A stretch of DNA of 64,000 nt from Blastocatellia bacterium (GCA_035634255.1 DASQDI010000034.1:32509-96508), one strand, 5' to 3'; positions 2-43,469 are shown, numbered from the stretch's first letter. The notes: generated by a model not told the origin, from the sequence alone. Made by a program: numbers and translations.

Positions 2-3000
2 CGCCTGCCGAGCAACGGAATCCCGACGGTCAGCGAGGTCAAGCAGACCGAAGACGAAGACAGGATCAATGCCGAGCACCTCGTCTCCGAAGATCGGGCG
101 GGCGCTCTGGATATCTTCGCTCTGGCGGCGAGGTACAACCCGCTCTCGAAGATCGACCCGCTCCGCGTCGCGTCGGTGGTCACGAAAGCCCCGAGGGCGA
201 TGTACGCGATGCTGACCACAACGGCCAGCGCGTCCAGCGCGGCGCCGGCCGCTCCGATAACGCCGGTGGAGGTGACCAAGAGCATCGCCCAGATTCCGGC
301 GGGCCGCTCGGTCACGATAATGTTCAACGTGACCGTCAACGCGGCGAACACGATACCTGCGGGCACGACTCAGGTCTGCAACGATGCCTCGGTCTCTGCC
401 CAGAGCGCCATGGGTCCCGTCAGCGCGACCAGTAATGAGGTCTGTACGGACCTGAACCTCCCGCCGAGGGTGACCACTCAACCGAATGATGCGAGCGTGT
501 GTGCCGGGGAGAACGCGGTCTTCACCGCGGCCGCGACCGGCGCGCCCGTCCCGACCGTGCAGTGGGAAGTCAGCACTGACGGCACGACCTTTACCCCCGT
601 CAACACGGGCGTCAGCAATAACACCGCTGGCGGCATCATCACCAGCACCCTGACCGTCCCTGCGGTGACCGTTTCGCAAAACGGGCATAAATACCGCGCC
701 AAGTTCACTAACAACGCGGACCCTGCCACGCCGACCGCCACGACCAACACCGTGACGCTTACGGTCAAGCAGCCGCCGACCATCCTGAAGGAGTTCATGC
801 CCACGTCGATTCCGCTCAACGGAGTCTCGACGATCAAGTTTACGATCACGAACCCGAACGCTTCGATTGGCCTGACGGGCATCGGATTCTCTGACAACCT
901 CCCGGCGGGGTTGCAGGTGGCAGCCGATCCGGCCATAGCCGCAACCTGCACGGGGACCTGGAATGCGTCGCCGGGTGATACGACTCTTAACTTCGGCGGA
1001 GGCACTCTGGCCGCCGGCGCTTCCTGCACGCTCATGGTCAACGTGACGGCCACGACCGCGGGAGTGAAGAACAACACGACCAACGCCATCACTTCAGTCG
1101 AGTGCCCGAACGGCGCGACCAGCAACACGGCTACGCTCACCGTCGTAGCGCCGCCGAGCATAGCCAAGTCGTTCAGCCCGAACTCAATCGGGGTCGGCGA
1201 CACGTCAACCCTGACGTTCACGATCACCAACCCGAACTCCGCGACCGCTCTCACGGGAGTCGCCTTTACCGACGTGCTTCCCGCAGGTCTGAGCGTGGCG
1301 GACGGCAGCTTCGCGGCCTGCGGAGGGACGGTCACGACGACCGCCGCCACTCGCACGATCTCCCTGAGCGGAGCATCTATAGCGGGCGGAGGCACCTGCA
1401 CCTTCAACGTGACGGTCACCGCCGCTTCGCCGGGTGTCCACACTAACACCACAGGCAACGTCACGTCGGCCAACGGCGGGACGGGCAACACCGCGACGGC
1501 GAACATCACCGTCATCGCCCCGCCGAGCATAGCCAAGGCGTTCAACCCCACGACCATCGCGGTCGGCGGAACGTCAACCTTAACGTTCACGATAACGAAC
1601 CCGAATCCTTCGATAACGCTCACGGGAGTCGCCTTCACCGACGTGCTCCCGGCAGGGCTCGGCGTAGCAGACGGCAGCTTCGCGGCCTGCGGAGGGACGG
1701 TCACGACGACCGCCGCCACTCGCACGATCTCCCTGAGCGGAGCATCTATAGCGGGCGGAGGCACCTGCACCTTCAACGTGACGGTCATGGGCGTTTCAGA
1801 AGGAACTTTCACGAACACCACCGGCAATGTGACTTCGGCCAACGGAGGCACGGGCAACACCGCTTCGGCAAACATCACCGTCCTCAATCCGCCGAGCATA
1901 GCCAAGGTCTTCAACCCGGCTTCAATACCGGTCGGCGGAACGTCAGTGCTGACCTTCACCATCAACAACACAAACACGGCGACTATCCTGACGGGAGTCG
2001 CCTTCACCGACGTGCTTCCGGCGGGCCTGAGCGTTGCCGATGGGAGCTTCGCGGCCTGCGGCGGAACGGTGACGACAGTCGCCGCGACCCGTACAATCAC
2101 GCTCACCGGAGCGACTATCCCCGCTGGCGGAACTTGCACGTTCAGCGTCACGGTCGGCGGAGTGAGTGCCGGAGTTCACACGAACACGACCGGCAACGTG
2201 ACTTCGAGCAATGCCGGAACTGGCAATGCCGCGACAGCAGTCATCACGGTTGTCGGTCCTCCGTCAATCAGCAAGTCGTTCAGCCCGACCTCAATCTCGG
2301 TCGGCGGAACCTCGACTCTGACCTTCAACATCGCCAACGCGAACACGACGACCACTCTAACCGGGGTCGGCTTTACCGACGTGCTTCCGGCGGGACTTGA
2401 CGTTGCCGACGGCAGCTTCGCGGCTTGCGGAGGGACGGTCACGACGGTCGCCGCGACCCGCACGATCACCCTCACCGGGGCTTCGATTGCGGCCGGCGGA
2501 ACCTGCACCTTCAACGTGACGGTCACCGGAACCGCGTCAGGCAATTACACCAACACGACGGGCAATGTGACATCGAACGAAGGCGGAACAGGCAACACGG
2601 CCACGGCCATGATCAATGTTGTCGGTCCTCCGAGCATAGCCAAGTCGTTCAACCCGACATCGATCCCGATTGGCGGGACGTCACTACTGACGTTCACGAT
2701 CACGAACAACAATCCTTCTACCACTCTGACGGGAGTCGCGTTTACCGACGTGCTTCCCGCAGGTCTGAGCGTAGCGGACGGCACCTTCGCGGCCTGCGGA
2801 GGGACCGTGACTACGGTCGCCGCCACCCGCACGATCACCCTAACCGGAGCGACCATCGCCGGAGGCGGGACCTGCACGTTCGGCGTGACGGTCACAGGCG
2901 TAACTGAAGGGACGTTCACGAACACCACCGGTAACGTCACGTCGGCCAACGGCGGGACGGGCAACACGGCGACGGCGAACATCACCGTCATCGCCCCGCC

Positions 3001-5980
3001 GAGCATAGCCAAGGCGTTCAGCCCGGCTTCGATCCCGCAAGGCGGAACCTCGACTCTGACGTTCACGATCATGAACACCAACACCTCGACCACGCTCAAC
3101 GGGGTGAGCTTCATCGACGTGCTTCCGGCGGGCCTGAGCGTTGCCGACGGCAGCTTCGCGGCTTGCGGAGGCACGGTGAACACGGTCGCCGCCACCCGCA
3201 CGATCACTCTGAGCGGAGCTTCGATTGCTCCGGGAGCCACCTGCACCTTCAGCGTCACGGTCGGCGGGGCGGCTGCCGGCGTCTTCACGAACACGACCGG
3301 CAACGTCACTTCGAGCAACGGCGGCACCGGCAACACCGCTTCGGCGAACATTACGGTTGTCGGTCCTCCGTCGATCAGCAAGGCGTTCAGCCCGACTTCG
3401 ATTCCGGTCGGCGGGACCTCCACCCTGACCTTCAACATCGCCAACGCGAACACGACGACCACGCTCACGGGAGTCGCGTTCACCGACGTGCTTCCCGCAG
3501 GAGTGAATGTTGCCGACGGCAGCTTCGCGGCCTGTGGAGGGACGGTCACGACGGTCGCCGCGACCCGCACGATCACCCTCACCGGGGCTTCGATTGCGCC
3601 GGGTGGAACCTGCACCTTCAACGTGACGGTGACCGGCGCAACCGCTGGCGTGAAGAACAACGTGACCGGTAACGTCACTTCGGCCAACGGGGGCACGGGT
3701 AACACCGCTTCGGCCACTCTGACCGTCGTAGCGCCGCCGAGCATAGCCAAGGCATTCAGCCCGACTTCAATTCCGGTCGGCGGGACCTCCACTCTCACCT
3801 TCACGATCACGAACTCCAACACGACGACCACGCTTACGGGAGTCGCCTTTACCGACGTGCTTCCCGCAGGTCTGAGCATCGTTGACGGAGTCTCGGCAGC
3901 GTGCGGAGGGGCGGTGACTACGGTCGCCGCGACCCGCACGATCACGCTCACGGGGGCATCGATAGCGCCGGGCGGAACCTGCATCTTCAGCGTCACCGTC
4001 ACCGGCACTACCGAAGGGGTAAAGAACAACGTCACCGGCAACGTGACATCAACCGAAGGCGGGACGGGCAACACCGCTTCGGCCACCATCACGGTCGTGT
4101 CGGGTCCGACGTTCACCAAGTCATTCGGCGCTGCCACGATCCCGGTGGGAGGCACGACATCCCTGACGTTCACGATCACGAACACCAACACTTCGACCAC
4201 TCTGACGGGGGTCACGTTCACCGACGTGCTTCCGGCAGGGCTTGAGGTGGCGGACTCTTCAACCTCGCAGTGTGGAGGCACTCTGACGACCACGGCCGCG
4301 ACCCGCACGATCACGCTCACGGGAGCTACGATAGCGCCGGGGGCCACCTGCACCTTCAACGTGACGGTGACCGGTTCTGCGGCGGGTGTGAAGAACAACG
4401 TGACCGGCAACATATCAACGAATGAAAGCGGTCAGGGTGGCACGGCAACGGCCAGCATCACGGTCGTCGCGCCGCCTTCGATCAGCAAAGCATTCGGGGC
4501 CGCCTCGATTCCTCTGAACGGGACCACGACGCTGACGTTCACGATCAACAACCCGAACTCGACGGTGAGCCTGACGGGAGTCGCCTTCACCGACGTGCTC
4601 CCGGCGGGGCTGAGCGTGGCTAACGGCAGCTTCGCGGCCTGCGGGGGGACGGTCACGACGACCGCCGCCACTCGCACGATCACGCTCGCCGGGGCGACCA
4701 TCGCCGCGAACGGGACGTGTACTTTCAGCGTCACGGTCACGGGCATCACGGCGGGGACGCAGACCAATACGACGGGCAACGTAACCTCGTCCAACGGCGG
4801 GACGGGCAACACCGCGACGGCAAGCGTCGTCGTCGTCTCTCCCCCGAACATCAGCAAGGCTTTCGGGGCCCCGAATATTCCTCTGAACGGAAGCACCACG
4901 CTCACGTTCACGATCAGCAACCCGAATAAGGCGACGATGCTTACCGGAGTCGGAGTCGTAGACGTGCTCCCGGCGGGGCTGAGCGTGGCTAACGGCAGCT
5001 TCGCGGCCTGCGGGGGGACGGTGACCACGGTCGCCGCGACCCGCACGATCACCCTCACCGGGGCTTCGATTGCGGCCGGCGGAACCTGCACCTTCACCGT
5101 CACGGTCACGGGCACAACGGTGGGCCTGAAGGTCAACGTCACGGGCAACGTCACTTCCGCCAACGGAGGGACGGGCAACACCGCGACGGCGTCCATACAG
5201 GTCAACTCAGCGCCGGTGGCCAAGTGCAAGAACGTCACCGTGTCGGCCGGGGCGAACTGCACGGCTAACGCTTCGATCAACGACGGCTCGTTCGATCCCG
5301 ATCCGGGCGATACGATTACGGTGGTCCAGACGCCCGCCGGCCCGTACCCGCTCGGCAACACGACCGTCACCCTGACGGTGACCGATAACCACGGCTCGTC
5401 GAGCACGTGCACGGGCGTCGTGACGGTCGTCGATACGACGCCTCCTGTCCTGAGCTGCCCGTCGAACATAGGGCCGAGTTCCGTCATACCCGTGAACGGG
5501 GGACTTAAGGTCACCTACCCGACTCCTGTGGCGACGGACAACTGCCCGAACCCGACGGTCGTCTGCGTTCCGCCGTCAGGGTCGATCTTCCCGGTGGGGA
5601 CGACGACCGTGACCTGCACGGCCACCGACGCGGGAGGCAACACGGCGGTCTGCACCTTCACCGTGACCACGTTCGACATCTGCCTGCAGGACGAGACCAA
5701 TCCGGGCGTGAAGCTCCTGCTCAACTCGCTCACGGGAGACTACGTCTTCTGCTGCAACGGGCAGCAGTTCACGGGCAGAGGGACGGCGAAGAAGAAAGGC
5801 CAGTCCATCACGTTCCAGCACATCACGGAAGACCGCAGGCTGAACGGGACGGTCAACCTTAACCAGAACTCGGGGACGGCAACCCTGCAAGCGCCTCCCG
5901 GACAAGTTCACTGCCAGATCGTTGACAGGGACATAAGGAATAACACTTGTGCCTGCGCGATCCAGCCGACCAAGCGTTGA
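2..5980 (+). CDS. Giant repetitive cell-surface adhesin-like protein, 5' partial (gene starts upstream of window). N-terminal Ig-like module, 12 tandem ~123-aa DUF11-type repeats, C-terminal HYR-like (hyalin-repeat) Cys-containing modules.
   Basis: Frame 2 is open from nt 2 with no stop before the ORF-track start at 176, so the window truncates the N-terminus. A 123-aa unit recurs 12 times: PPSIAK(A/S)F.P..I.VGGTS.LTFTI.N.N....LTGVAFTDVLPAGL.VADGSFAACGGTVTT.AATRTITL.GA.IA.GGTCTF.VTV. This is the classic conserved-repeat-domain (DUF11) signature. C-terminus: DNCPNP.V.C.PPSGS.FPVG.T.V.C.ATD..GN...C.F.V.V, a HYR-like Cys pattern. No recognisable sorting signal at the C-terminus. Confidence 0.8.
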   Translation, partial: RLPSNGIPTVSEVKQTEDEDRINAEHLVSEDRAGALDIFALAARYNPLSKIDPLRVASVVTKAPRAMYAMLTTTASASSAAPAAPITPVEVTKSIAQIPAGRSVTIMFNVTVNAANTIPAGTTQVCNDASVSAQSAMGPVSATSNEVCTDLNLPPRVTTQPNDASVCAGENAVFTAAATGAPVPTVQWEVSTDGTTFTPVNTGVSNNTAGGIITSTLTVPAVTVSQNGHKYRAKFTNNADPATPTATTNTVTLTVKQPPTILKEFMPTSIPLNGVSTIKFTITNPNASIGLTGIGFSDNLPAGLQVAADPAIAATCTGTWNASPGDTTLNFGGGTLAAGASCTLMVNVTATTAGVKNNTTNAITSVECPNGATSNTATLTVVAPPSIAKSFSPNSIGVGDTSTLTFTITNPNSATALTGVAFTDVLPAGLSVADGSFAACGGTVTTTAATRTISLSGASIAGGGTCTFNVTVTAASPGVHTNTTGNVTSANGGTGNTATANITVIAPPSIAKAFNPTTIAVGGTSTLTFTITNPNPSITLTGVAFTDVLPAGLGVADGSFAACGGTVTTTAATRTISLSGASIAGGGTCTFNVTVMGVSEGTFTNTTGNVTSANGGTGNTASANITVLNPPSIAKVFNPASIPVGGTSVLTFTINNTNTATILTGVAFTDVLPAGLSVADGSFAACGGTVTTVAATRTITLTGATIPAGGTCTFSVTVGGVSAGVHTNTTGNVTSSNAGTGNAATAVITVVGPPSISKSFSPTSISVGGTSTLTFNIANANTTTTLTGVGFTDVLPAGLDVADGSFAACGGTVTTVAATRTITLTGASIAAGGTCTFNVTVTGTASGNYTNTTGNVTSNEGGTGNTATAMINVVGPPSIAKSFNPTSIPIGGTSLLTFTITNNNPSTTLTGVAFTDVLPAGLSVADGTFAACGGTVTTVAATRTITLTGATIAGGGTCTFGVTVTGVTEGTFTNTTGNVTSANGGTGNTATANITVIAPPSIAKAFSPASIPQGGTSTLTFTIMNTNTSTTLNGVSFIDVLPAGLSVADGSFAACGGTVNTVAATRTITLSGASIAPGATCTFSVTVGGAAAGVFTNTTGNVTSSNGGTGNTASANITVVGPPSISKAFSPTSIPVGGTSTLTFNIANANTTTTLTGVAFTDVLPAGVNVADGSFAACGGTVTTVAATRTITLTGASIAPGGTCTFNVTVTGATAGVKNNVTGNVTSANGGTGNTASATLTVVAPPSIAKAFSPTSIPVGGTSTLTFTITNSNTTTTLTGVAFTDVLPAGLSIVDGVSAACGGAVTTVAATRTITLTGASIAPGGTCIFSVTVTGTTEGVKNNVTGNVTSTEGGTGNTASATITVVSGPTFTKSFGAATIPVGGTTSLTFTITNTNTSTTLTGVTFTDVLPAGLEVADSSTSQCGGTLTTTAATRTITLTGATIAPGATCTFNVTVTGSAAGVKNNVTGNISTNESGQGGTATASITVVAPPSISKAFGAASIPLNGTTTLTFTINNPNSTVSLTGVAFTDVLPAGLSVANGSFAACGGTVTTTAATRTITLAGATIAANGTCTFSVTVTGITAGTQTNTTGNVTSSNGGTGNTATASVVVVSPPNISKAFGAPNIPLNGSTTLTFTISNPNKATMLTGVGVVDVLPAGLSVANGSFAACGGTVTTVAATRTITLTGASIAAGGTCTFTVTVTGTTVGLKVNVTGNVTSANGGTGNTATASIQVNSAPVAKCKNVTVSAGANCTANASINDGSFDPDPGDTITVVQTPAGPYPLGNTTVTLTVTDNHGSSSTCTGVVTVVDTTPPVLSCPSNIGPSSVIPVNGGLKVTYPTPVATDNCPNPTVVCVPPSGSIFPVGTTTVTCTATDAGGNTAVCTFTVTTFDICLQDETNPGVKLLLNSLTGDYVFCCNGQQFTGRGTAKKKGQSITFQHITEDRRLNGTVNLNQNSGTATLQAPPGQVHCQIVDRDIRNNTCACAIQPTKR
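775..5230 (+). repeat. Coding tandem repeat array, 12 units of 369 nt, nearly identical at nucleotide level
   Basis: The 10-mer ccgccgagca recurs at 1151, 1520 and 1889, spacing exactly 369 nt, and so on through the gene. Long stretches are identical between units (e.g. ggcagcttcgcggcctgcggagggacggtcacgac). Confidence 0.85.
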
Positions 5981-13478: not shown

Positions 13479-14435
13479 ATGATCCGAGTTTTAATGTTTG
13501 ATTTGTACGGTACTCTTGTTCGAGGTGATAGTCTGTTTCCTCATGCGCGTGAAGCTCTTGCGGTAGTATCCAAGTTCGAGACAAGCGCAGGCGACCCGCT
13601 CGATTTGTGTCTTGTTTCAGACTTTGACATGCCGGCACCCCCTGCGACGCCGCAGAAGACTGAGAGCATCTTTAATAAATATATCTCGATATTGAATGAT
13701 CTCGATTTGCAGGATTTTTTCGAGCCGGTCCGGCGGCATGTTACGCTCTCGGCCCATGCGGGAGCGCCCAAACCTGACAGGCGCGTCTTCGAAAAAGCCC
13801 TTGAACGGCTCGGCACCGACGCACATTTAAGCGAGTGCCTATTCATTACTGAGAACAAAGAGCACGCCGCTGCCTGCCGCAAGTTGGGGATGGTCACCTT
13901 AGAATTCAACCCCCTTGGACCCGGAGAAGGCGACTTTCATGACTGGTCAGAAGCCCCTTCGATAATTGCTCAAACTGTTGCGCCCGATAGCTTCTTTGAT
14001 ATGCAACTGGCGCTGAAACTACGACTGGCAACAGCTCATGATATGGAATTAGTGACGATCAGCACGGGTTCGACCAAAGGCCGCATCCGCGGACGAGCGA
14101 AGGTCTTGCATCCTGTCACGTTAATGGCCGACGAGGGTTCTGAGAAAGTGCAAGTGCCGGTCCCTGTCGACGTGGAGATCGAGATGAGTGAGGAGGGAAA
14201 AATCAAATCAGTCAAGGCCGGCGAGCCTGACCCCGAGTACCTGGCCGAATCTGCTCATTTTATTGAGACCCTCAGAGAACACGGCCAGATCGCAAGCGAG
14301 CACAGCAAGCCTACGCCGGGCCAGACGTATCAGGAAGAGACCGACGAAAAGGGCCGCAAGCTGTTAAAACACATACGCTCCACAGCCCTCCCGGAGGGGA
14401 GATCACGCCGGCTTAAAAATGGCACAAGAACCTGA
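13479..14435 (+). CDS. HAD-superfamily hydrolase-like protein with C-terminal extension
   Basis: N-terminal motif I VLMFDLYGTLV (DxYGT, HAD-like). Remainder unrecognised. Overlaps the convergent gene 14413..15969 by ~20 nt at the 3' ends. Confidence 0.5.
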   Translation: MIRVLMFDLYGTLVRGDSLFPHAREALAVVSKFETSAGDPLDLCLVSDFDMPAPPATPQKTESIFNKYISILNDLDLQDFFEPVRRHVTLSAHAGAPKPDRRVFEKALERLGTDAHLSECLFITENKEHAAACRKLGMVTLEFNPLGPGEGDFHDWSEAPSIIAQTVAPDSFFDMQLALKLRLATAHDMELVTISTGSTKGRIRGRAKVLHPVTLMADEGSEKVQVPVPVDVEIEMSEEGKIKSVKAGEPDPEYLAESAHFIETLREHGQIASEHSKPTPGQTYQEETDEKGRKLLKHIRSTALPEGRSRRLKNGTRT

Positions 14436-15969
14436 TCCGCGTGAGGACCTTCTTGCCTCCGCGCGCACGTACGACATGCGTAGGCAGGTGGCTCTTCTTT
14501 TTATCGCCGGCGGCGGCCGAAGCGGCGCGGGCGGCTGAGGCCGCGCGTATCGCCCCGCGCGGGGTAGTGGGTCCGGGCATTTCGTCTTCGAATACGATGG
14601 CATCCTTCTCGAGCAGCGTTTCGACAAACGTGTGCACCTCGTCCGTCGTGACGCTCTCTTGCGGTAACGCGCTCACGATGGCCGCGCGTCTGCCTGAAGA
14701 CCCGACGAGGATAGGTTCGGAGACGACCGCGACCACATCGCGCAACCTTTCGCTCAACCCGCTAAGCGGGACCTCCCGGTGATGCACCGCCTCGGCAAAA
14801 TTTTCGCCGCCGATCTTAACCGCATTAACGGTGAGCCTCGATTGAGGCGCGGCGCCGAGCCGCCGCTTTAAGTCCTCGCGAGTAGTCGCCGTCAGGATGG
14901 GGGCGCCCCCCCTCGTGGCCGCGGCGATCCTGGGCGCTTCGCCCGCCAGGCTCGCTCTCGGGGCCAGCATCGCAGAGACCCCCAGGCTGATACCATGGCG
15001 CGAAAAGGCTTCACGTATGGCGTCGCGATTCGCGCCACTGTTGGTCTCCTGGTCTACCAGAGCCATGGCGCGCCCGACGGATTGGAAAAAGCGCGGGGTT
15101 TCTTGAGCCTGCCGCGTCCCGCCGATCAAGAGTTTGCCCGCCGTCTGCGCAGCCTTCCACAGATTCGCCTGATTGCGTGCGGTGTGGGAGGCAAAAATGT
15201 TGCGGATCAAGTCATAGAAACAGCCCGCGAAAACCCGCCCGAAGCTGTGAACCTCAGACGTGAGCACCGAAGGCTTGCCGGATTTCGGCAAGGTCGTGGG
15301 CAGCTGCCATTTAAAATTATTGAGCGCACGGCGCGGCGCGGAGGCGTCAAAGTCCGGCCCCTCGGCGCGCTTCGTCCCATCGGCCAAATCTTCCATCACT
15401 GCCTCTACAAAATTCTTACCCCCTAAATCCGGCGATATGTTAAGAAGCGCGTTGCGCGTCGCCTGGTCGGACAAGGCCGTGAGGATCGCCACGCAATCGC
15501 CGAAGGCTTCGTGAAACGCATTCGGTTCGGGTAAGGTGGTGTCCCAGAGGTCAGGCCTGATGGCGTCTAAAAAAGCGTGGCCGCACTCGTGCGCGACGAC
15601 ATCGGTGCTGGCCCCCGAAAAGGTGGTCTTGTTGCCGGTCGTGTACTCATAAAACTCTAGCGATTGCCGGCTGTAGCCCGCGTTGAGATCAAAACCGGCG
15701 TTTTGCAGCAGGGATAGTTTCTTCGGCGAAGATGTGCCCCAGGCAGACAATTTGCCGCTGAGGCCTTCCCACACCTCTATCGCCAGAAGCGATGCCTCCC
15801 GACACTGCCAGAAGAGAAACTCCGGCGTGCCGCGGTCATACAGACCTTCCGCGACGGCGCCCGTGTAAGCGAGGCCGGCGCTACCGGCCGGGCGATCACC
15901 TCTGGGCTGTTTCTTGCGCATCGGCGGCCCATTTTGAGCCAGGGGGTCGTTCGGAATGAAGTTGATCAT
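14413..15969 (-). CDS. Thermolysin-like (gluzincin) metallopeptidase-like protein, no signal peptide
   Basis: VVAHECGHAFLD is an HExxH motif. NAFHEAFGDCVA lies 20 residues downstream; it resembles the M4 NEAxSD third-ligand Glu motif at M4-like spacing. No N-terminal hydrophobic signal. C-terminal Ala/Lys/Arg-rich tail. Confidence 0.55.
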   Translation of the reverse strand: MINFIPNDPLAQNGPPMRKKQPRGDRPAGSAGLAYTGAVAEGLYDRGTPEFLFWQCREASLLAIEVWEGLSGKLSAWGTSSPKKLSLLQNAGFDLNAGYSRQSLEFYEYTTGNKTTFSGASTDVVAHECGHAFLDAIRPDLWDTTLPEPNAFHEAFGDCVAILTALSDQATRNALLNISPDLGGKNFVEAVMEDLADGTKRAEGPDFDASAPRRALNNFKWQLPTTLPKSGKPSVLTSEVHSFGRVFAGCFYDLIRNIFASHTARNQANLWKAAQTAGKLLIGGTRQAQETPRFFQSVGRAMALVDQETNSGANRDAIREAFSRHGISLGVSAMLAPRASLAGEAPRIAAATRGGAPILTATTREDLKRRLGAAPQSRLTVNAVKIGGENFAEAVHHREVPLSGLSERLRDVVAVVSEPILVGSSGRRAAIVSALPQESVTTDEVHTFVETLLEKDAIVFEDEMPGPTTPRGAIRAASAARAASAAAGDKKKSHLPTHVVRARGGKKVLTRIRFLCHF

Positions 15970-16039
15970 AGGTGTCCTTTCTGGCGCTGGGGCGCAACCT
16001 GAACTGATGATACTACCCTTCGGCTGCGCGGCCTTGTTT

Positions 16040-18418
16040 TCATCGGCGTGGGATGGGAGTGATGAGGCTATCGCGCGCCTGCATAATGTCGATCATGGCC
16101 TCAAAACTAAATCGCTCATCCCCGTCCTTGTTTTCAAGCTTCTTAATTCCCTCACCTACAGAGTACAGGTAACCGCTACGCTGTGTTATGCCGACAGTCT
16201 CCATGGGAACAATCCGTAGATTAGCCACCTCTTGCATGATCTCTTGATAGGCGTTCTTACCGTGATACCACGGCCAGCGCTGGACGGTTGAGAGGTCGCC
16301 CTTCTTCTCGCCCGCCGGCGGTATAGGGGTCTGGAACCCTTCGGCCACCTTCTTGAAATCGTTCTGGAATTTATCGCTCCGCCAGTAACCTGGGAGGGCA
16401 TGATTTTTGAACAGGAAGATGACCGGGAAGATATCGACGTACTCAAGGCACGCGGCCAAAAGTAAGGCGAGGTCAATGCACGTACCCCGCCGACCGTTGA
16501 TGATTTCAGAAGGGGTGCGCAAGCGCTGCGAGGCGATGTTGTAGGTCGGGGGAGGGTTGATGTAGCTGATATTCATGTTATAAAGGAGCGCCGCCCAAAG
16601 AGCCCTCACCTGCTGGTCGACCCCATCGTAAGGCTTATCGGCGCCCGCGTCGACCGCCTGGTAACCATCGAACCCCGCGCTGCTGTCATCGCGCAACGCC
16701 ATCACATAAGCCTGCGCGACGTCAACGATCTTACTGACAGCGGGGTCGCGCGGCAGGACGAAAGAAGGCAGCCAGACGCGCTCCGCGTCGTTGCCGCGCC
16801 ATTCGTCTATCGGCGGCAAAGTGACGCGGTAGGTCTGCCGGTGAAGCAACTGTTTTTGCCATGAGACCTCGACGAAGAGCCCCGTATGTACATTCTCGTT
16901 ATTGAGGAAGTCTATCGAGTAGAAGAGCGGCACACGTATATCTTTGTTCAGGTCGCGCGACGATTCGGCCATGTCAACAGAGCCGCTATAGCGCGAGCTT
17001 TCCCCTCCGACGTACAGCACCACGTCAACCTGAATGTCATTGACGCATCCGGGCGGGTCCTTCTCCTTACGCAGCATGAATTTTTCAAATAACTCGCAGT
17101 TGTTATGCAGCGTCGAGTAGTTCAAATTATTGCAGGTCTTAACCTCGACCGAGAGAAGTTTGCGGGCGTCCCTCCCGTGGAGGTCCTCGACCGTTATGAC
17201 TTTCTTTTTCTCCGTGAGCAGGTCGGTCCGGACCCTCTCCGAGGCTTCCGATTGAGGCTTGACCAGGGATTGCGCGCTCCACAGGACCACCCCCGTGCCC
17301 ATCAGCCGCTGGGGCTGTTGCTTGAGCAGGTTGCAGGCGTACTTGAAAGCCTCTAAAGTGTCCCAGTTGAACCGCCTCCAGGCTTCATAGAAACTGTCGA
17401 AGAAAAGCTCCGTCAAGGCATCTTCGAACTCGTCCTGGAATCCAATCGCGGCGCCTGCGCCTTCAGCTACGATCAAAGAGCTGACACGCTGGGCGGAGTA
17501 AAATATATTGCAAGAGACGAGCGCGGGCTTACGCGCGGCGGCATTGAGCAACCGCGCGAGGTCTTTAGCTTCGACCGGGTCGACGCCGGGGTCACCCGTT
17601 AACAAATAGCCGTCGAGCACCTCCTCCACGTTTAATACGCCTAGAGTCACTGCTTGATTAGTGTCGAAGCCCGACAGGTGAATGACGTCCGGCGCGTAAC
17701 CGGTGATTTTCGCGCCTACGCTCTGGCGAGTTCCGTCCGTGATGATTTCATGCCGAAGGCCCAGGCTCGACTCCACCAGATGGCGCTCGGAATCGAAAGT
17801 GTATTGCTGCCCCAGTTCTCCGGGGGCACTCTCGATAATCAACAATTTTTCCGGCTTCTTATTGTGGGCTGCTTTCGTCTGTCTCTGTAAGTGGCGGATA
17901 ACCGTTAAGGCCTTCCCCTGTCGGAAAGGACGTGTGGCCGCGCTTAACATGTACTCCCATGGGAATACGCGCGCTTCCCAGCCATCTTCTTCGGACGTGA
18001 AAGGGACGGCGACTTCTACGACGTCGGACTCCGCGATGCCACGTAAGTGGTCCCGTTTGATGCCGAGCTTATCGAGTTCCGTCTGGCAGCGTTGAATCTG
18101 TTCTTCGCGAGCAGACTCGGACGTGTTCCATCGGCGGCGATTGCACAGGATATAGGACCACTGCGCCGCCGCGCGCTGGAAGTCTTTGCTGCTCTGGAGA
18201 GTCGTCACCTCACCGGCGGGCGTGCGGAGATGAACCGTCACCCATTCTTTGGCGGGCGTTGCAGGATGCGGCATCCTTATTTTTCGCCGACCCGAGCCGG
18301 AAGCGGTAGCCGATTTCCGCGCCCCGTGTGCTTTACCTTTTTTGCCGGCTAGACCTTTCTTGCTCGGTTGCGAGCCCTTGTAGGAGGCCCCGATCCGCGC
18401 TTTTTTTGATGACGGCAT
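16040..18418 (-). CDS. Multi-domain cytoplasmic protein: polybasic (Lys-rich) N-terminal tail, CHAT/caspase-like domain, C-terminal transglutaminase-like Cys-protease core
   Basis: N-terminus MPSSKKARIGASYKGSQPSKKGLAGKKGKAHGARK. The segment DVIHLSGFD...KPALVSCNIFYSAQRVSSLIVAEGAGAAIGFQDEFEDALTELFFDSFYEAW matches the CHAT His...Cys dyad pattern (HxxGHG...LSAC...AGA..V...W.V.D). C-terminal GRRGTCIDLALLLAACLEYVDIFPVIFLFKNHALPGYW resembles the transglutaminase-like G.C.D.A..L.A....GIP...... H...GYW core. Located 70 nt upstream of the co-oriented metallopeptidase gene. Confidence 0.45.
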   Translation of the reverse strand: MPSSKKARIGASYKGSQPSKKGLAGKKGKAHGARKSATASGSGRRKIRMPHPATPAKEWVTVHLRTPAGEVTTLQSSKDFQRAAAQWSYILCNRRRWNTSESAREEQIQRCQTELDKLGIKRDHLRGIAESDVVEVAVPFTSEEDGWEARVFPWEYMLSAATRPFRQGKALTVIRHLQRQTKAAHNKKPEKLLIIESAPGELGQQYTFDSERHLVESSLGLRHEIITDGTRQSVGAKITGYAPDVIHLSGFDTNQAVTLGVLNVEEVLDGYLLTGDPGVDPVEAKDLARLLNAAARKPALVSCNIFYSAQRVSSLIVAEGAGAAIGFQDEFEDALTELFFDSFYEAWRRFNWDTLEAFKYACNLLKQQPQRLMGTGVVLWSAQSLVKPQSEASERVRTDLLTEKKKVITVEDLHGRDARKLLSVEVKTCNNLNYSTLHNNCELFEKFMLRKEKDPPGCVNDIQVDVVLYVGGESSRYSGSVDMAESSRDLNKDIRVPLFYSIDFLNNENVHTGLFVEVSWQKQLLHRQTYRVTLPPIDEWRGNDAERVWLPSFVLPRDPAVSKIVDVAQAYVMALRDDSSAGFDGYQAVDAGADKPYDGVDQQVRALWAALLYNMNISYINPPPTYNIASQRLRTPSEIINGRRGTCIDLALLLAACLEYVDIFPVIFLFKNHALPGYWRSDKFQNDFKKVAEGFQTPIPPAGEKKGDLSTVQRWPWYHGKNAYQEIMQEVANLRIVPMETVGITQRSGYLYSVGEGIKKLENKDGDERFSFEAMIDIMQARDSLITPIPRR

Positions 18419-19186
18419 GCCGCTCTCCTTTCAAGTTCTTAAGGATGAGGGACGGCGATTGTAATCTTCGGTTATAGCCGAGCCAGTCAAATCTTTCTTT
18501 TGTCAGACTAATAGACAAAACCTACGATTAAGAACGCCTGGCCCAGAATTGGTCAGTGAGAGAAGAGATTTGTCCAATTAACGCTTACTCATCGCGTGCC
18601 GAGACCACAATAGAATTCTGAGCAGGAGGGTTGTAACCCGACCGGGAGTGTAATAGCTGCCGCGCCCTGTTGTCAATCCCCTTCATGTCTAAGCTTAGCC
18701 GTATGGTAAACCGGAGTTTTATCATAAGAATTAGGTAGGCATGTCACTCGACGTTAAGGGCTTGACGCCCCTCACGTACGGGGCCAAGATTATAAGCAGC
18801 AGCGATTAACTAAAGCCGTGGACGCAACGGGGCGGACATTATTGCGAATTAACCGCCGGAATACAACTACTCCATCCCGCGCCGATTGAAAAACTGTTGG
18901 TCATGCCTCGACGCCTCATCGAGGCGACGCAAGGCCGGGACCGGCCACAGCACTGATCGCTCCGATTTCGGCAATCGGCGCGGCTCGGGCGCAATACCAA
19001 CTGCTCCGACTTATCTTCAGCAGATTCTTGACGCCGGGATGTTCATCCCGAAGAGGGGATTTGCCATGTTTATTCTACTCGCGTGACGACTGCCGGGCGG
19101 TTTCGCTCGCCCGGGCGGCGAGTAGTTTTATCTTACACATGGAGGCCAAGGCTACATTAACGAAACAGACTTAGGAGGTACAAAAA

Positions 19187-27586: not shown

Positions 27587-29950
27587 TCAATTCCGTTTCG
27601 CGGCGCTCCTTAAATAAATCCGATCAATCGACCAATCGGTCGGCGTCCGCGCCTTCGCCGCGCGGGTCGCTGAGCCGATGCTGTAAAACAGTTGCGCCAG
27701 AGGCGAATCGTTTTGGCCTCTTATGTCGCCCCTTGAGCGCGCGCCCGTGAATTCGAGCACGAATGGGTCAGGCAACTCCTGATCGCTCGTCAGCAGAATG
27801 TACGTGTCCAACCCGAACGGCGGTACTAACTCGACCATACCGGCCTTGCCGAGTAATATCTCCCGCGGCTGTTGGGCGGGCGGCTTTTGGGCGTCGAGCG
27901 GAAAGCGGTTTTCCAGATTCCCGTCCTTATTAAACAGCAGAGAGGACGCGCCCTGGCTGTCTATGGAAAAGACATAGACCCATTTGCGGTTTATGATTCT
28001 GGCCCGCGCGAGCGCCTGCTCGTCGGCCACCAGCACCAGATCGTACTTATCGCCTTCATAAACAGTCCCCTCGCGCATCAACTCGCTCGCGCCGGTCCTG
28101 CGCACCGAAAGCCGGTATGGAAAGTCCGCGCTCGCGGGCGCTTGAATCTGCTGCCAGCCTTTGATGCGCGCGAGCGTCACCGCCTTGTCATGCAACTCCG
28201 CCGCGCCCGCGCCGCCCGAGCCTTCTATGGCTATCCAATCGCTGCGGGGCGGGAAGACGTATTCGGATTGCTTGTTATTATCGGCGCTGCCGGTTAATGC
28301 TTCGCGGCGCACCCACGCATACTCCACCCGGTCGCCGTCCGAACGGCCCGCGAGAAAATACTCAGCCTCCTGCAAAGTTTTGGTCTCTTCCATAGCCTGT
28401 TCGAGCTTGAGACCGTGCCGCAGTTCCCGCGACGGCGGCAGACTGATGAACACCGGTTGACCGGTCGCGGCGGCCACTTTTTTCAAGTCGAGCGGGTTGC
28501 TCAATGACTCGGCTTCGCCCGCGGGGGAAACGGATTCCCATCGCCCGCCCGCATAGATGACTACCCGTTCGGCCCGCGCCCCTGTCGGGTCGTCAACCGC
28601 GCTGATATGTTTCGCGCCGCGCAGTTGTTTAAGCTCGCGCGCGACTCGCAGGATTTCGCCCTGCTCAATCGCCGGAGGTATCCAGACTTTCAGGCCCACG
28701 CCGTCTTTCGAGACCCACCGATCCAGGATGTAGAGGTCGCCGCGCCGGATGCTCCCGGCGTCGCCTTGAATGACTTCGGCCTCGCAACCGCTCAATCCGG
28801 CCAGGCTCGTGACGCGCAGCCTGGCCCCTTTATCGTCAGGCTGGCCCGCTTTTTTCAACTCGCTGCCGACGCCCAGCCCCATCGCCAGCCCGCCTTCGAG
28901 CGTGAAGCGATTCCGCTCGACTTTGATAACGCTGGCCGCCGGCTTGTCGAGCGCCGGGTCGGGCTCGCCGCCGAAGAGCGGCCCCTTACGACGTTGCGCG
29001 TTGGCTTCCAGGGCAGGCTGCTCGTACACCTGCTCGCCTTTCATGTAACTGGTCACCCGGCTGAAGACCTGCTCGGCGGACTCGTTGGCCGACACTGACG
29101 GTTGCGACAACACCTGGCTCAAGGCCCAGGTAAAGTTGCCGCGAGGCGAGCCGTTGTACCGGCACTCTCTCGCCTGCTGATAATCCTGCGCGGCGTAGAG
29201 AAAGAGCGCGCCCCGCTCGGCGGGCGATTGCTTGAAGCTCTGCGGCTCGGCAACGTCTCGTTCGTCGAACGGCCCCGTCCGGGTGTACTCTTCGGCGAAG
29301 CTGCCGCGCCCGAGCGAGCTGCTGTGACAGCTATCGAAAATCCCCGTGATCGTTACCCCCTTGTCAATCGCCTTCAGGAAGAGCCGGGCGATCTCCTTGT
29401 CGCGGATGTCGCGCGCACCATGGTTGGCGTCCGCCGGCACTATGCTCTCGTCATAGCCGTCCGCTTCTCCGCTCCTGGAGTTCTTCACTTTCGAGCCGTG
29501 ACCCGCGTAATACAGTACGCATATGTCGCCCGGCTCGGCCTGCCGGATCAGGTGATCTTCTATGGCCTGCAAAATAGCATCGCGCTTCGCTTCACCGTCC
29601 TTGAGGACTTTCACCTCAGTGAATGCGAATTTATTAATCAGCAGCGCTCGCATTGCTTCGACATCGTTCACCGGCCCATAGAGGTTAGTGAACGCGCCGC
29701 GCATGGAGCCGCTCTTCTGGGCCGCCGCCGGCCGGCGAGTCGGCCTGCCCGCGCTCGCGCCAGGACGATCAATCTTTTCTTTCGCCTGCTCGGTCTGGTA
29801 GGTGTTGATGCCGATGAGCAGGGCGCGGCGCACAGGTTCTTTAACCGGCCGACCAGCACTGGATCGAGCCACGGTCGGGAAAGGCGCCTGCGCAAAAATC
29901 AGCGCAAGGGATACGGCAACCGATGTGAGGGTTCTATTAGAGCGGCGCAT
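27587..29950 (-). CDS. Secreted caspase-family (peptidase C14) protein with large C-terminal region
   Basis: Signal peptide MRRSNRTLTSVAVSLALIFAQA. Caspase fold signatures: RRALLIGINTYQ, NDVEAMRALL, catalytic His in CVLYYAGHGS, catalytic Cys in IFDSCHSSSLGR. Last gene of the minus-strand sigma/CHAT cluster. Confidence 0.8.
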   Translation of the reverse strand: MRRSNRTLTSVAVSLALIFAQAPFPTVARSSAGRPVKEPVRRALLIGINTYQTEQAKEKIDRPGASAGRPTRRPAAAQKSGSMRGAFTNLYGPVNDVEAMRALLINKFAFTEVKVLKDGEAKRDAILQAIEDHLIRQAEPGDICVLYYAGHGSKVKNSRSGEADGYDESIVPADANHGARDIRDKEIARLFLKAIDKGVTITGIFDSCHSSSLGRGSFAEEYTRTGPFDERDVAEPQSFKQSPAERGALFLYAAQDYQQARECRYNGSPRGNFTWALSQVLSQPSVSANESAEQVFSRVTSYMKGEQVYEQPALEANAQRRKGPLFGGEPDPALDKPAASVIKVERNRFTLEGGLAMGLGVGSELKKAGQPDDKGARLRVTSLAGLSGCEAEVIQGDAGSIRRGDLYILDRWVSKDGVGLKVWIPPAIEQGEILRVARELKQLRGAKHISAVDDPTGARAERVVIYAGGRWESVSPAGEAESLSNPLDLKKVAAATGQPVFISLPPSRELRHGLKLEQAMEETKTLQEAEYFLAGRSDGDRVEYAWVRREALTGSADNNKQSEYVFPPRSDWIAIEGSGGAGAAELHDKAVTLARIKGWQQIQAPASADFPYRLSVRRTGASELMREGTVYEGDKYDLVLVADEQALARARIINRKWVYVFSIDSQGASSLLFNKDGNLENRFPLDAQKPPAQQPREILLGKAGMVELVPPFGLDTYILLTSDQELPDPFVLEFTGARSRGDIRGQNDSPLAQLFYSIGSATRAAKARTPTDWSIDRIYLRSAAKRN

Positions 29951-30020
29951 GATGCGTTACCTCCCAAAATTTTCCAATCGATAGATTTGAAGGCGGCGCG
30001 ACATTTCCTCTTCGGGCCGC

Positions 30021-33000
30021 TTACCTCCAATTGCCGGTCAGAACGAAAGGCGACCAGTAATAGGGGTGGGTAAACGGCGCGCCCTTGTCCTGCGTGAACG
30101 GCGGCGATTGATCAGCGCCGGGGCCGGTAACCGCCGGCCCGCGCCAGAGCGGAGTCTCACCTGCTCTGTACCTGCCGTTTATCAGAGAAAGCTGCGCCTT
30201 TCGCAGGGCTTCGCCTTTGCCGACTCGCGGGGCGGCTTCGAGCTGCCCATAAAATTCGCTCATTAAAACCCGCGTCGAAGCGTCGGCCACCGACCACAAG
30301 GTTGCCAGGACCGATTTCGCACCCTGTTTTTGAGCTATCGCGCCGAAGCTTTCGATCTCCGCGCCGCTCGATTTTTCACCGGCGCTCATCGCAGTGTTAC
30401 AGGCCGAAAGCGTCAGCAGTTCCACCTCGCTGAATTTATCGCCGATCTCGTCGCGCACCGCCGCCAGCGATAATCTCCGCTCCTCCTCCTTGCCGCCGCC
30501 GAGCAGCAGGTACGAACTCGCTTCGTTTCCGGCGTTGAGGCTGAAATGGCTGGCGACGTGAACGATGCTGTAGCGCCCGAGGTGGAGCTTGAACGCCCGC
30601 AAGGTAAATTCTTCGTCGGGCAAATTCACGCCCCTGATGATGCCGCTCTTCCCTTCCGTCAGTTCCGCGCAGAAGGCTCTTTTCTGCGGGTCGTCGACGA
30701 CGCTGCATAATTCCACAGGGACCGAGGGGAGCGCGGAAAAACCGCCGAAGGGTTTCGACACGCCGACGCCGAGCGCCGTCCAGTCGCCCCGCCCACCCGG
30801 CGCGTCTTTCAGCTTGTCGAGGCTCGCCAGAGTGATGACGGAGTTGGAATACTTCTCAGCCAGATACCTCTTGCCGTCCCACAGCGCGGCGAGGGGCGCG
30901 TAACGCAGCGTGCCGTCCAGGCTCCAGACTATCGTGTCAGCTTTCACGCCTTCCAAATCTTTTTGCAAAGCGGGAGGGAGCAACTTGTCGTAAAGCTTTT
31001 TGCCCGCCGGTCGCGGGTCGAGGCTCGGGTCTTGCGCGGCGGCGCGAAATTCGGCGACCAGTTTGTTCAACTCCTCCGCTTTGATGTCAACGGTGTGCGC
31101 GCGATTGACTTTCGCGGTAGTGACGATGATGTTCAAGCGGTCTTCGCCAGCGATGGTGGAAAGGATGACCGTTCTCGGCTGCTTGAGGCCTGAGAGCAAC
31201 GCCTGCGTGCCCGATATTTGGGCCACGCGCACGTCCTCCTGCCTCTTTTCCTTGTTGAAGTATTGGCCGCTCAGTTCTTCGAAGAATCTGTTGAAGACTT
31301 TCCTCGCGTCCGTAAGCTTATTGCCGAGGTCGTCGAGGCGGGCTTGTTGCGGGAACTTCCCGACCTCATATTGCCTGCTCGCTTTCTCCAGCTCATCGTG
31401 TTCTTTGCCGACGAGGGTGATGCGGTCGGCGATCTGTTGGTAGCGTTGGTAGGCTTCGCGCTCGGGGTCGTTGAGCGGGATTTTGTCCAGCAGTTCTTTC
31501 GCGACTTTATCGCCGCGGCGCAGGTACTCGAAAAGCTCGTCTCCTTTGAGCAGGGCCAGAACCTGCTCGGCTTCGGCGATGCGCCCTTCGGCGATCAACC
31601 AGTCGGCCAGCCGCCGGTAATGCTTCTCTTTTTTTTCCAGGAAGCCCTTCCGAGAAATAGCGTCTAGGTTCTGTAATCTCTGGCGCTCCGATTGAATCTC
31701 ATTAATGGCTCGCTTGCCGTAAAAGATCGCCAGCCGCCGGTTGCCGAGCGCGTCGTGGGTGCGTGCCAATTCAGTGAGCAGCGAGCTGTACTTCGGAGAG
31801 AATGCCTCTTTGCCGCCAATGCCCACGGATTGATAAAGGGCCAGGGCTTCGTTTTGATACTTTAAGGCTTCCTGCGCTTTGCCCGCCTCCATCAGCGTCC
31901 ACCCAACGTCAGTCAAATCATCGGCGGTATCTTCATTAACGTTTCCGGTGCGGCTGATTTCAAGCGCTTGTTTGTAGTACTCGGAAGCCTTATCCCACTC
32001 TTCCAGCTTCGCCAAGGTGTATGCGACAGAGGCCGCGCTTAATCTAATAGTACGGGGCTCTTTCATGGAATGGGAAAGCGCCAGAACCTTTTCGTAATAC
32101 TCAAGAGATTTTGGATAATCTTCCATCATCCGGTAATTGTAAGCAATGCTGTCCAATCTCACCTTTTCGATGAAAGTCTCATAACCTTCATCGAAGACCC
32201 CGAGCCCTCCGATATTGGCGTTCTTCTTCGCATTCTCCGCAAAATCGGGGGACTGCAAAATTGCCAGGCTTTGATCGACACGCTCCTTGAGCCTGACCTT
32301 GTCGTTCAGTACCCAATACATCGAAGCCATAATGTACAAGGTAGAGGATTGACCGAATTTATCATCCATCTCGCGATTGATTTCCAAAGCTCTTTCCAGG
32401 TTCTTTAACGCCGCTTCATATTCGTAATTTCGCGACTGGACCATGGCGATGGAGGTCAAAGCGGTCGCCACGTTTCTTTTTTCATTTTCGAATGCGCCGT
32501 AGATTTTCAGCGATTCGGTGAAAGATTCCAGGGCCTTAGCACTATCTTTCGCCTCCCTGCTATATACCGTTCCTATTCTTTGTAGTGTTAAAGCTTCCCG
32601 GAGTTTGAATTCCGGGCCCTGAGTTTCCTGATACAAAGCGCGACGCCGTTCTAGTGATTCATTCAGGTATTTGAGGGCTTCTTCCGGCTGCCCGAAACTG
32701 TTATCAAGCGTCCCGCCAATGTCAGCCAGCGTGTCGGCCCTGAGGGTTTTAAGCGCGATGAGGGCTTGCTTTACGCCGGGAATGTTTAGGTCGGCGAATG
32801 CTTTATCCTCAAGGATTTCCCGGTAGACCGCGAGAGCCTGCTTCTGGTAATCAACATTTGCCCTCAATTCGCCGAGGTTATTATGCGTCTGAGCAATACC
32901 GCCCAGTGATATAGCTTCGCCGTTCTTCGCCTGAAGTTCTAAGAGCTTCAGTAAGTTGAGTAATTGCCGGGAGACCTCGCCTGTCCGACCTATTTTTTCG

Positions 33001-33806
33001 ACGAGGGCCGTGTCCTTCAGCTTTGCGTTCAGGGCGCGAAACCTTGTTAAGGATTCGTTTAATTTCTCCCTTGCCGCGAGGGAATCCGATTTTGATCTGA
33101 CGCTTAGTTTTTGCCCTTCCCCCAATACCTGAATCGCCTTCTTTAATTCCTGAGACGGCTCGGTGAAAAGAAGGGCGTCGTATTTATTGACTTTGACTTG
33201 TCTGACTTTTTGCGTCGTCAACTCTACCAGACCGCCCTCTCCTAACTCCCGCCAGCCCGCCGATGCTCCTTCAAGTTTCGCTATAGCTGTGTCTGATTCC
33301 CCCGCCTTATGACTCGCGGCCATCCCTTCGACGAACAATCGTTCGACCTCGACCCGCCTCCTGTCTTTCGCGGTCGCCGTCCGCGAGGCTTCGCGCCGGA
33401 TTGTGTAACCGCCCCTTTCCGCCTTCGCATCAAGGCCGCTTACTTCCAGCATGAAACTGCCAGCCTTCTCCGCCACAAACGAAATGGTTTCCGGCCCCTG
33501 CTTTCCGTTAGGGCTGTCCATCTCGCCCAGGACGTTGCCGCTCGCGTCCAGCAGCCTGAGCGTAACATCGACGCCTTTCTGCTCGGCCCGCGCCTGAAAA
33601 AACTCTCCGGCTTTCAAAGCTAATGCGTAACGGTGCGTCTCCGTGCCGGTCATCTCACGTTCAAGGGTTTGACTCGGAGGCAATTCCCGAACGCGGCCCC
33701 CGCTCGACGCCTGCCCGAAAGCGACACCAAATGACAGAGTCAGCGATATGAGCAGGGGCAGGATTCGCCGCGTGTGTGGTCTAAGGTTCGTCGTCATCTT
33801 TTTCAC
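30021..33806 (-). CDS. Secreted PPC-like/TPR-repeat/CHAT-domain protein (1261 aa), paralog 3
   Basis: GTG start with ggagaaagag SD. Signal peptide MKKMTTNLRPHTRRILPLLISLTLSFGVAFGQA. N-terminal beta-sandwich (..GYTIRRE). Long TPR array (AL.YY..AL.I... repeats). C-terminal CHAT: HVASHFSLNAGNEASSYLLLGG...LLTLSACNTA...AKSVLATLWSVADAST..LM..FY...HPYYWSPFVLTGNWR. Confidence 0.85.
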   Translation of the reverse strand: MKKMTTNLRPHTRRILPLLISLTLSFGVAFGQASSGGRVRELPPSQTLEREMTGTETHRYALALKAGEFFQARAEQKGVDVTLRLLDASGNVLGEMDSPNGKQGPETISFVAEKAGSFMLEVSGLDAKAERGGYTIRREASRTATAKDRRRVEVERLFVEGMAASHKAGESDTAIAKLEGASAGWRELGEGGLVELTTQKVRQVKVNKYDALLFTEPSQELKKAIQVLGEGQKLSVRSKSDSLAAREKLNESLTRFRALNAKLKDTALVEKIGRTGEVSRQLLNLLKLLELQAKNGEAISLGGIAQTHNNLGELRANVDYQKQALAVYREILEDKAFADLNIPGVKQALIALKTLRADTLADIGGTLDNSFGQPEEALKYLNESLERRRALYQETQGPEFKLREALTLQRIGTVYSREAKDSAKALESFTESLKIYGAFENEKRNVATALTSIAMVQSRNYEYEAALKNLERALEINREMDDKFGQSSTLYIMASMYWVLNDKVRLKERVDQSLAILQSPDFAENAKKNANIGGLGVFDEGYETFIEKVRLDSIAYNYRMMEDYPKSLEYYEKVLALSHSMKEPRTIRLSAASVAYTLAKLEEWDKASEYYKQALEISRTGNVNEDTADDLTDVGWTLMEAGKAQEALKYQNEALALYQSVGIGGKEAFSPKYSSLLTELARTHDALGNRRLAIFYGKRAINEIQSERQRLQNLDAISRKGFLEKKEKHYRRLADWLIAEGRIAEAEQVLALLKGDELFEYLRRGDKVAKELLDKIPLNDPEREAYQRYQQIADRITLVGKEHDELEKASRQYEVGKFPQQARLDDLGNKLTDARKVFNRFFEELSGQYFNKEKRQEDVRVAQISGTQALLSGLKQPRTVILSTIAGEDRLNIIVTTAKVNRAHTVDIKAEELNKLVAEFRAAAQDPSLDPRPAGKKLYDKLLPPALQKDLEGVKADTIVWSLDGTLRYAPLAALWDGKRYLAEKYSNSVITLASLDKLKDAPGGRGDWTALGVGVSKPFGGFSALPSVPVELCSVVDDPQKRAFCAELTEGKSGIIRGVNLPDEEFTLRAFKLHLGRYSIVHVASHFSLNAGNEASSYLLLGGGKEEERRLSLAAVRDEIGDKFSEVELLTLSACNTAMSAGEKSSGAEIESFGAIAQKQGAKSVLATLWSVADASTRVLMSEFYGQLEAAPRVGKGEALRKAQLSLINGRYRAGETPLWRGPAVTGPGADQSPPFTQDKGAPFTHPYYWSPFVLTGNWR

Positions 33807-33825
33807 GTCTCTTTCTCCGGCCGCA

Positions 33826-38838: not shown

Positions 38839-38855
38839 GGTTGCCTCCGGTAGAA

Positions 38856-43406: not shown

Positions 43407-43469
43407 TGGAGCATTCCTCCCGATCAATTCAGCTTGTTTGCGCGAGATGTAAACTGCTTGAACCTTGGA

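Follow-up and report, generated by a model that had tools for sequence, protein, structure and literature searches.

A pseudo-CHAT and transglutaminase-like fusion protein of Blastocatellia and the exchangeable hydrolase genes downstream of it

A 64,000-nucleotide stretch of a Blastocatellia (Acidobacteriota) metagenome-assembled genome (GCA_035634255.1, DASQDI010000034.1:32509-96508; referred to as the window throughout) carries on its minus strand two adjacent genes, gene A (16040..18418, 792 amino acids) and, downstream of it, gene B (14413..15969, 518 amino acids). Protein A combines a caspase-like domain of the CHAT type that has lost its catalytic histidine with a transglutaminase-like domain whose catalytic residues are invariant, and protein B is a zinc metallopeptidase of the M36/M4 type with an intact metal site. 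In most relatives of A the gene immediately downstream encodes instead a DUF7379 alpha/beta-hydrolase, which was replaced by the metallopeptidase once. We tentatively propose, at a probability that we put a little short of even, that A and the hydrolase gene immediately downstream of it constitute a two-gene module, in which the partner is ancestrally and usually a coupled DUF7379 protein and was exchanged a single time for a B-type metallopeptidase in a Blastocatellia/Pyrinomonadaceae lineage.

The original prediction described A and B as two co-oriented open reading frames 70 nucleotides apart, and this was borne out, with both products belonging to conserved families (139 database hits for A and 982 for B). 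A Shine-Dalgarno-like GGAG/AGGA can be read ahead of each gene, the one preceding B being a ribosome-binding-site-like AAAGGA within the spacer (15970..16039, minus strand), and a terminator scan of the window detected no terminator-like hairpin in these 70 nucleotides. Among the B-linked loci A and B are likewise co-oriented, with gaps of 13-137 nucleotides. Given the co-orientation, these gaps and the lack of a predicted terminator between the two genes in the window, A and B are likely co-transcribed.

Protein A is 100% identical to a database entry from a Blastocatellia metagenome-assembled genome named "hypothetical protein" at NCBI, the name that all its database relatives bear. The family is nevertheless sizeable, with about 365 clusters at 50% identity and, in a genome scan, relatives encoded in 347 species genomes of the Acidobacteriota, Gemmatimonadota, Planctomycetota, Proteobacteria, Verrucomicrobiota, Eisenbacteria and Chloroflexota. 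An AlphaFold2 model built with 52 homologues as input (mean predicted local distance difference test score, pLDDT, 82.6), together with residue conservation over 115 full-length homologues, sustains at the fold level the three-module architecture that had been read from the sequence. The first 57 residues (18248..18418, all A domains on the minus strand) form a disordered tail rich in Lys, Arg, Ala and Gly, with pLDDT below 50 for residues 4-51. Its strongly basic character, also foreseen, is confirmed by 11 Lys and 5 Arg with no Asp or Glu, and is family-wide, the Lys and Arg content being 25-30% in the B-linked clade and in the remaining family alike. The model secondary structure then shows a small domain of a beta-hairpin and helices at residues 58-130 (18029..18247), with invariant W87, R94 and W97 and no assigned family, followed by the CHAT/caspase-fold domain (131-385; 17264..18028), an all-beta sandwich (421-540; 16799..17158; DSSP strands 422-534) and the transglutaminase/papain-like domain (541-792; 16043..16798). 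Neither A nor B has a hydrophobic N-terminus or a transmembrane-like segment outside buried helices, in agreement with the claim that neither is secreted, and A looks like a cytoplasmic member of a widespread, uncharacterised family.

Residues from about 131 to 385 have the alpha/beta fold of the caspase-haemoglobinase group, and they also keep sequence features specific to CHAT proteins, namely the "PDxxH" motif and the helix that follows the Cys strand. This fold is common to A and to CHAT proteases such as SAVED-CHAT (PDB 8tl0), the Csx29/TPR-CHAT protein of the type III-E Craspase, separase and the anti-sigma factor DdvA. A His and a Cys in the canonical order had been claimed for this domain, and alignment of the two residues to CHAT dyads had been set beforehand as the deciding check; the outcome was against an active dyad. 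The register of the His was examined by aligning the family profile to 8tl0 with HMMER, twice, and by hhalign against the three canonical TPR-CHAT proteins of the window, the latter with a very low probability value, so that it was used for the alignment register only. By both HMMER and hhalign, the partner of H247 (in "PDVIHLSGFD") is the first His of the CHAT "HxxxH(G)" motif, which is not catalytic, while the catalytic second His pairs with F251 in all three alignments, and position 251 is Phe, Val, Ile, Cys, Ala or Leu, never His, in 115 of 115 homologues. For the Cys the registers differ: hhalign pairs S-C303-N with the canonical "A-C-N/D", whereas HMMER places C303 three residues before the catalytic Cys of 8tl0 and pairs the latter with F306, a position that is aromatic in 103 of the 115 homologues. 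C303 itself is kept in 78 members (68%) and is otherwise Phe, Leu, Ser, Met or Val, also inside the B-linked clade and among the close relatives of the window protein.

Because the catalytic His is missing in every homologue and neither register offers a conserved Cys nucleophile, the alignments identify the CHAT-like domain of A as a pseudo-protease. It differs from CHAT proteases in having Phe, Val or Ile at the catalytic His and a variable Cys, and in lacking any SAVED, TPR or CRISPR association; the closest analogy is with pseudo-caspases (c-FLIP, for instance) or with the separase pseudo-protease domain. The label "CHAT domain-containing protein" would therefore not denote an active caspase-like protease here, and a tempting mis-annotation is corrected. 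His254, present in 66% of the family, was considered as a non-canonical partner of C303 and rejected, since the two residues do not co-vary (counts of 54/24/22/15, a co-occurrence not beyond chance) and the window protein has Asn at this position.

Residue 254 (window 17657-17659) belongs to the loop that follows the position of the missing catalytic His. Every full-length sequence of the B-linked clade (19 of 19) has Asn here, and about 79% of the DUF7379-linked members have His. The change coincides with the switch of partner, but as this happened only once it carries no statistical weight.

By contrast with the dead CHAT-like domain, the C-terminal transglutaminase-like domain of A apparently is active, judging from its conserved residues. 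In the model C647 starts helix 647-660 and H673 lies just before strand 674-679; both are present in 115 of 115 members, E740 (in "P-x-E-T/S") in 114 and D777 in 113, so that the hallmarks of the fold, a Cys at a helix N-terminus followed by a His and an acid on later strands, are all there and all conserved. The third residue of the triad is probably Glu740 rather than Asp777. Family-level Pfam scores are below threshold (DUF553, 19.5 bits against 20.5; Transglut_core, 13.2 against 23), and A is a divergent member of the transglutaminase-like/papain-fold enzymes that stands outside the curated families. From the known enzymes of this kind (Transglut_core PF01841, DUF553 PF04473, PNGase, TglA, PeiW and BTLCP) it is set apart by falling under the Pfam gathering thresholds, by its probable Glu as third residue, by a long insertion (682-735) between the His and the acid, by its cytoplasmic location and by its fusion to a pseudo-CHAT domain. 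The beta-sandwich ahead of the catalytic core is a feature that A has in common with animal transglutaminases and with ProA, and Foldseek aligned A to the animal transglutaminases 1g0d and 1nug over 340-390 columns, with both sandwich and core covered. A is thus predicted to carry one active cysteine centre, not two, and of the two proteases originally seen in it the transglutaminase-like one stands with its invariant triad, whereas the CHAT-like one is catalytically dead.

The nearest named relative of this module is the anti-phage protein ProA. Residues 433-683 of A match positions 1-240 of the 1903 positions of NCBIfam NF058533 ("anti-phage protein ProA") with an E value of 3.6e-43. As a full-length equivalog, however, A scores 147 bits against a cutoff of 1500, and because this is far under the whole-protein cutoff the likeness is limited to the module. 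ProA proteins are Upf1-like helicase proteins of about 1900-2000 amino acids with DUF4011/DUF3320, of which the N-terminal 240 or so residues correspond to the beta-sandwich and transglutaminase-like module of A; A lacks any helicase or nuclease portion, has in its place a pseudo-CHAT domain and a basic tail, and comes with a hydrolase gene as its pair. A tblastn search of plasmids found the transglutaminase-like module N-terminally in proteins with a DUF3320/DUF4011 domain annotation. One of them is a ProA-like protein of 1994 amino acids (L091) on the Sinorhizobium alkalisoli plasmid NZ_CP034911.1 (193383-200494), a PADLOC candidate (PDC-S37, Hhe-like), with which A has the motifs LPxFVxPxDP, DGYQ, TC(I/L)D, GHA..G.W and ET in common, the Cys, His and Glu motifs being kept. 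The L091 gene is followed by a "DNA repair exonuclease" gene and adjoins a multiubiquitin/ThiF/DUF6527 (ubiquitin-like, Bil-type) gene set. In the literature we found no paper describing ProA, nothing relevant on PDC-S37 and, for DUF3320, only a 2013 HEPN survey. If the two-gene module of A is functional, it would also offer a handle on the N-terminal module of ProA, for which we found no published function.

Protein B had been described as a thermolysin-like peptidase on the strength of its HExxH and third-ligand motifs, and this description holds. In 51 sequences H127-E128-x-x-H131, E154 (in "HEAFGD"), H241, Y252 and D253 are invariant, which provides the HExxH motif, the Glu third zinc ligand and the transition-state His of a gluzincin on a thermolysin fold. 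Pfam M36 matches the C-lobe only (E value 1e-7; 32 bits against a threshold of 23.3), and the AlphaFold2 model (pLDDT 91.5; predicted template modelling score 0.92) matches in Foldseek the M36 fungalysins (E values 9e-7 to 1e-6) and M4 thermolysin and aureolysin (5e-4) from residue 1 to about 335. The metallopeptidase part (residues 1-335, nucleotides 14965-15969, minus strand) is followed by a conserved and confidently predicted but unassigned alpha/beta domain (residues 336-518) that has no match in the PDB. Fungalysins (M36) and thermolysin (M4) share with B the HExxH motif and downstream Glu ligand, the transition-state His, equivalent to His241, and the two-lobed fold. B differs from them in lacking a signal peptide and an FTP/PepSY propeptide, in a shortened N-lobe that places HExxH at residue 127, in the extra conserved C-terminal domain of 180 amino acids, and in the constant linkage of its gene to a convergent HAD-like gene. 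The catalytic domain begins at residue 1 and the N-terminus is conserved from residue 2 (I2, N7 and D8 invariant), and neither a hydrophobic leader nor propeptide Pfam hits (FTP/PepSY) were found. B is therefore plausibly an active, non-secreted gluzincin, as judged from the conserved site and the model. Its Ala/Lys-rich end, read earlier as a tail, is in part a conserved and confidently folded hairpin (residues 498-511).

The partner slot downstream of A was surveyed in the best 80 A loci from the genome scan. In 65 of the 80 the downstream gene encodes a DUF7379 alpha/beta-hydrolase of about 445 amino acids, which keeps a Ser ("HSRGG")-Asp-His triad and whose start overlaps the stop of A by 4 nucleotides in 24 of the 65, across several phyla. 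B is the partner in two of the 80 (L011 and L012); the window and three metagenomic loci (L004, L007 and L092) have it too, and contigs of identical length in the A and B hit lists suggest about nine further A-B pairs. A weakly caspase-like protein, which hits the generic PADLOC "caspase" model, occupies the slot in two Gemmatimonadota loci (L047 and L050). Seven of the 80 loci (L023, L047, L048, L050, L055, L069 and L080) have enough downstream DNA but no recognised B or DUF7379; overall, a hydrolase fills the slot in about 90% of the loci with enough downstream DNA. All-against-all clustering of the neighbours in the 80 loci revealed no third conserved gene.

The DUF7379 partners have two conserved poly-Arg runs before the hydrolase core, at about residues 33-40 ("SLRRRRRR") and 72-78 ("GRRRRRG"; noted over the set L013-L090, e.g., L044:10409-11803), which could be processing or docking sites. 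In the B-type loci L004 (5270-7635) and L092 (1024-4690) A is preceded, in divergent orientation, by genes for a larger M36 peptidase (788 amino acids in L092, called as 611 + 177 in L004) and for an M28/M20 peptidase, making a local peptidase cluster.

In a neighbour-joining tree of A, the five B-linked proteins that it includes (window, L004, L007, L011 and L012) form one clade nested among DUF7379-linked A proteins, which implies that the partner was replaced once. The close outgroups P0021 and P0022, with A proteins 53-54% identical, retain DUF7379. A DUF7379 gene was seen neither in the whole 64-kb window nor, within 8 kb, at the B-type loci. What surrounds the A-B-HAD block varies between loci, while the adjacency of A and B is kept down to 55% A identity. 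The expectation that the A-B pair would recur in other genomes thus holds for a single nested clade of A (the above five and L092), and the "two-protease pair" is a lineage-specific derivative rather than the core of the system.

The HAD-like gene of the block (13479..14435, plus strand; 318 amino acids; motif I "FDLYGTL") is convergent to B in the window and overlaps its 3' end by 23 nucleotides; its product gives weak HAD hits and its motif is of the dehalogenase-like DxY kind. Homologues that are convergent to B and overlap its 3' end are found in L004, L007, L009, L010, L011 and L012, with a remnant in L008, so that the companion is kept at every B locus examined, with or without A.

Taken together, we suggest that the ancestral and usual partner of A is a translationally coupled DUF7379 serine alpha/beta-hydrolase, and that in one Blastocatellia/Pyrinomonadaceae lineage, which includes the window, a pre-existing M36/M4-type gene with its own convergent HAD-like companion took the partner slot once. 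A and the downstream hydrolase would act together, the dead CHAT domain serving as a binding or regulatory platform and the basic tail tethering A to a polyanion such as nucleic acid, polyphosphate or a membrane. The transglutaminase-like domain might cleave or transamidate the partner hydrolase, or a substrate that the two share, and so control it, and the hydrolase would be the output, in the service of conflict and defence or of stress-related self-digestion.

Several observations weigh against such a module. B and the HAD-like gene stand without A, at 54-60% B identity, on all three long contigs that were checked, one of which, of 4.85 Mb, carries no listed A homologue, and A occurs without B in most lineages. 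The A-B link arose only once in evolution and may have lasted simply as inherited synteny, and hhalign profile-profile comparison found no docking domain common to B and the DUF7379 partners. Only sequence and secondary structure underlie the choice between Glu740 and Asp777 as the third triad residue of A. None of A, B, the DUF7379 partners and the HAD-like protein is hit by a model of PADLOC-DB 2.0; about five of 96 immediate neighbours from some 60 loci match PADLOC models (one PtuA, one PD-DExK and three mad2), in what is a coarse test with no control set, the remaining neighbours being metabolic or housekeeping genes, and no relatives were found on viral contigs. The main rival takes A and B to be functionally unrelated, an A gene that had lost DUF7379 having come once to lie upstream of an independent, common acidobacterial B-HAD unit and having been inherited there since. 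We consider this rather unlikely, even though the A-less B contigs, the single origin of the association and the lack of a domain common to B and DUF7379 proteins all speak for it, as do the HAD-like gene that is convergent to B regardless of A and the size of the B family, with 982 hits where the B-linked A clade has only about 20. In addition, the 70-nucleotide spacer could hold a promoter of B's own, and B has a long upstream region of its own in L008 and L009. However, B sits on the same strand immediately 3' of A, in the exact slot that a hydrolase fills in nearly all other A loci, and the adjacency persists while other flanks change; moreover, no DUF7379 gene was seen within 8 kb at the B-type loci or in the window, and no terminator is predicted between the two genes.

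The pair had also been read as part of a protease-based defence system. That three active intracellular proteases (CHAT caspase-like, transglutaminase-like and thermolysin-like) form an abortive-infection or gasdermin-activating anti-phage cascade now appears very improbable. The CHAT fold is real, the transglutaminase-like module is homologous to the N-terminus of ProA, hydrolase-partner swapping and a patchy phylum distribution are typical of conflict systems, and one related locus (L005) adjoins patatin and caspase genes; the CHAT catalytic His is missing in all 115 homologues and the Cys is not conserved, however, no gasdermin or other pore-forming gene was seen among the neighbours scanned (those of the window by Pfam and NCBIfam, those of the 80 loci as conserved third genes), PADLOC hits and a defence-island context are absent, and the A-B pairing is not general. 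What stands of the defence reading is indirect, drawn from the ProA homology, the swapping of partners and the phylum distribution, and it is weakened by the housekeeping context. We regard it as unlikely that the A family and its swappable downstream hydrolase (DUF7379 lipase/esterase-like, M36-like metallopeptidase or caspase-like) are an unrecognised two-gene conflict or defence system, in which the ProA-type transglutaminase-like domain would sense or transduce a signal of infection or stress, the dead CHAT domain would restrain the effector, possibly through the poly-Arg motifs of the partner, and the polybasic tail would put the complex on nucleic acid. Somewhat less probable again is that A works on its own, for example as a transglutaminase that cross-links or deamidates proteins or as an isopeptidase, on substrates bound to polyanions, with the downstream hydrolases as loosely related helpers in housekeeping turnover rather than regulated effectors. 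The housekeeping flanks, the invariant triad, the layout of sandwich and core as in true transglutaminases and the seven loci with no recognised partner, of which two have the caspase-like gene, would suit this view. Against it stand the 4-nucleotide overlap with DUF7379, which recurs in several phyla and points to a tight stoichiometric coupling, and the presence of a hydrolase in the slot at the great majority of loci. The module of A with an exchangeable hydrolase thus remains the reading that we prefer.

Elsewhere in the window, a promoter-like site TTGACA-18-TACACT (18647..18676, minus strand) lies about 230 nucleotides upstream of A; it was found by a consensus scan with 10 of 12 matches, and such a consensus match is not evidence of function. 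The flanks of A and B encode an extracytoplasmic function (ECF) sigma factor, a beta-lactamase-fold protein, Hsp20 and HtrA (Pfam and NCBIfam scans). Further away, at 27587-43496 (minus strand), a Peptidase_C14 caspase-like protein of 787 amino acids is followed by the three giant TPR-CHAT proteins (1261, 1679 and 1546 amino acids), whose CHAT domains are canonical (E values 1e-48 to 1e-51; "H(V/I)ASH" and "LSAC(N/D)"). The GC content of this region is 0.47-0.56 compared with about 0.63 elsewhere, so that an island encoding active caspase-like proteins may have been acquired here. The window also encodes a 1934-amino-acid protein with 12 DUF7933/DUF11 repeats, an isopeptide-forming domain and a HYR domain, probably a surface adhesin (176-5980, plus strand), and a cyanophycin synthetase (47505-50156, minus strand). 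Outside the window, the region upstream of the DUF7379-type A module of L005 (2729-7895) contains patatin, Peptidase_C14, Y4kD_C and metallo-beta-lactamase-like genes, a conflict-like neighbourhood that is not typical of the family.

All domains come from known superfamilies. What appears undescribed in the literature searched is a protein in which pseudo-CHAT and ProA-type transglutaminase-like domains are fused, together with its operonic coupling to interchangeable hydrolases; we found no paper on such a fusion, or on DUF7379, and the earlier suggestion that the domain combination is new agrees with this and with the uninformative database names and the PADLOC result. If the module is functional, it would represent a new wiring of protease-like domains in bacteria, in which a pseudo-caspase fused to an active transglutaminase-like domain governs swappable hydrolase outputs. 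As the A family is sizeable and wholly unannotated, even a basic assignment of activity would annotate many genes.

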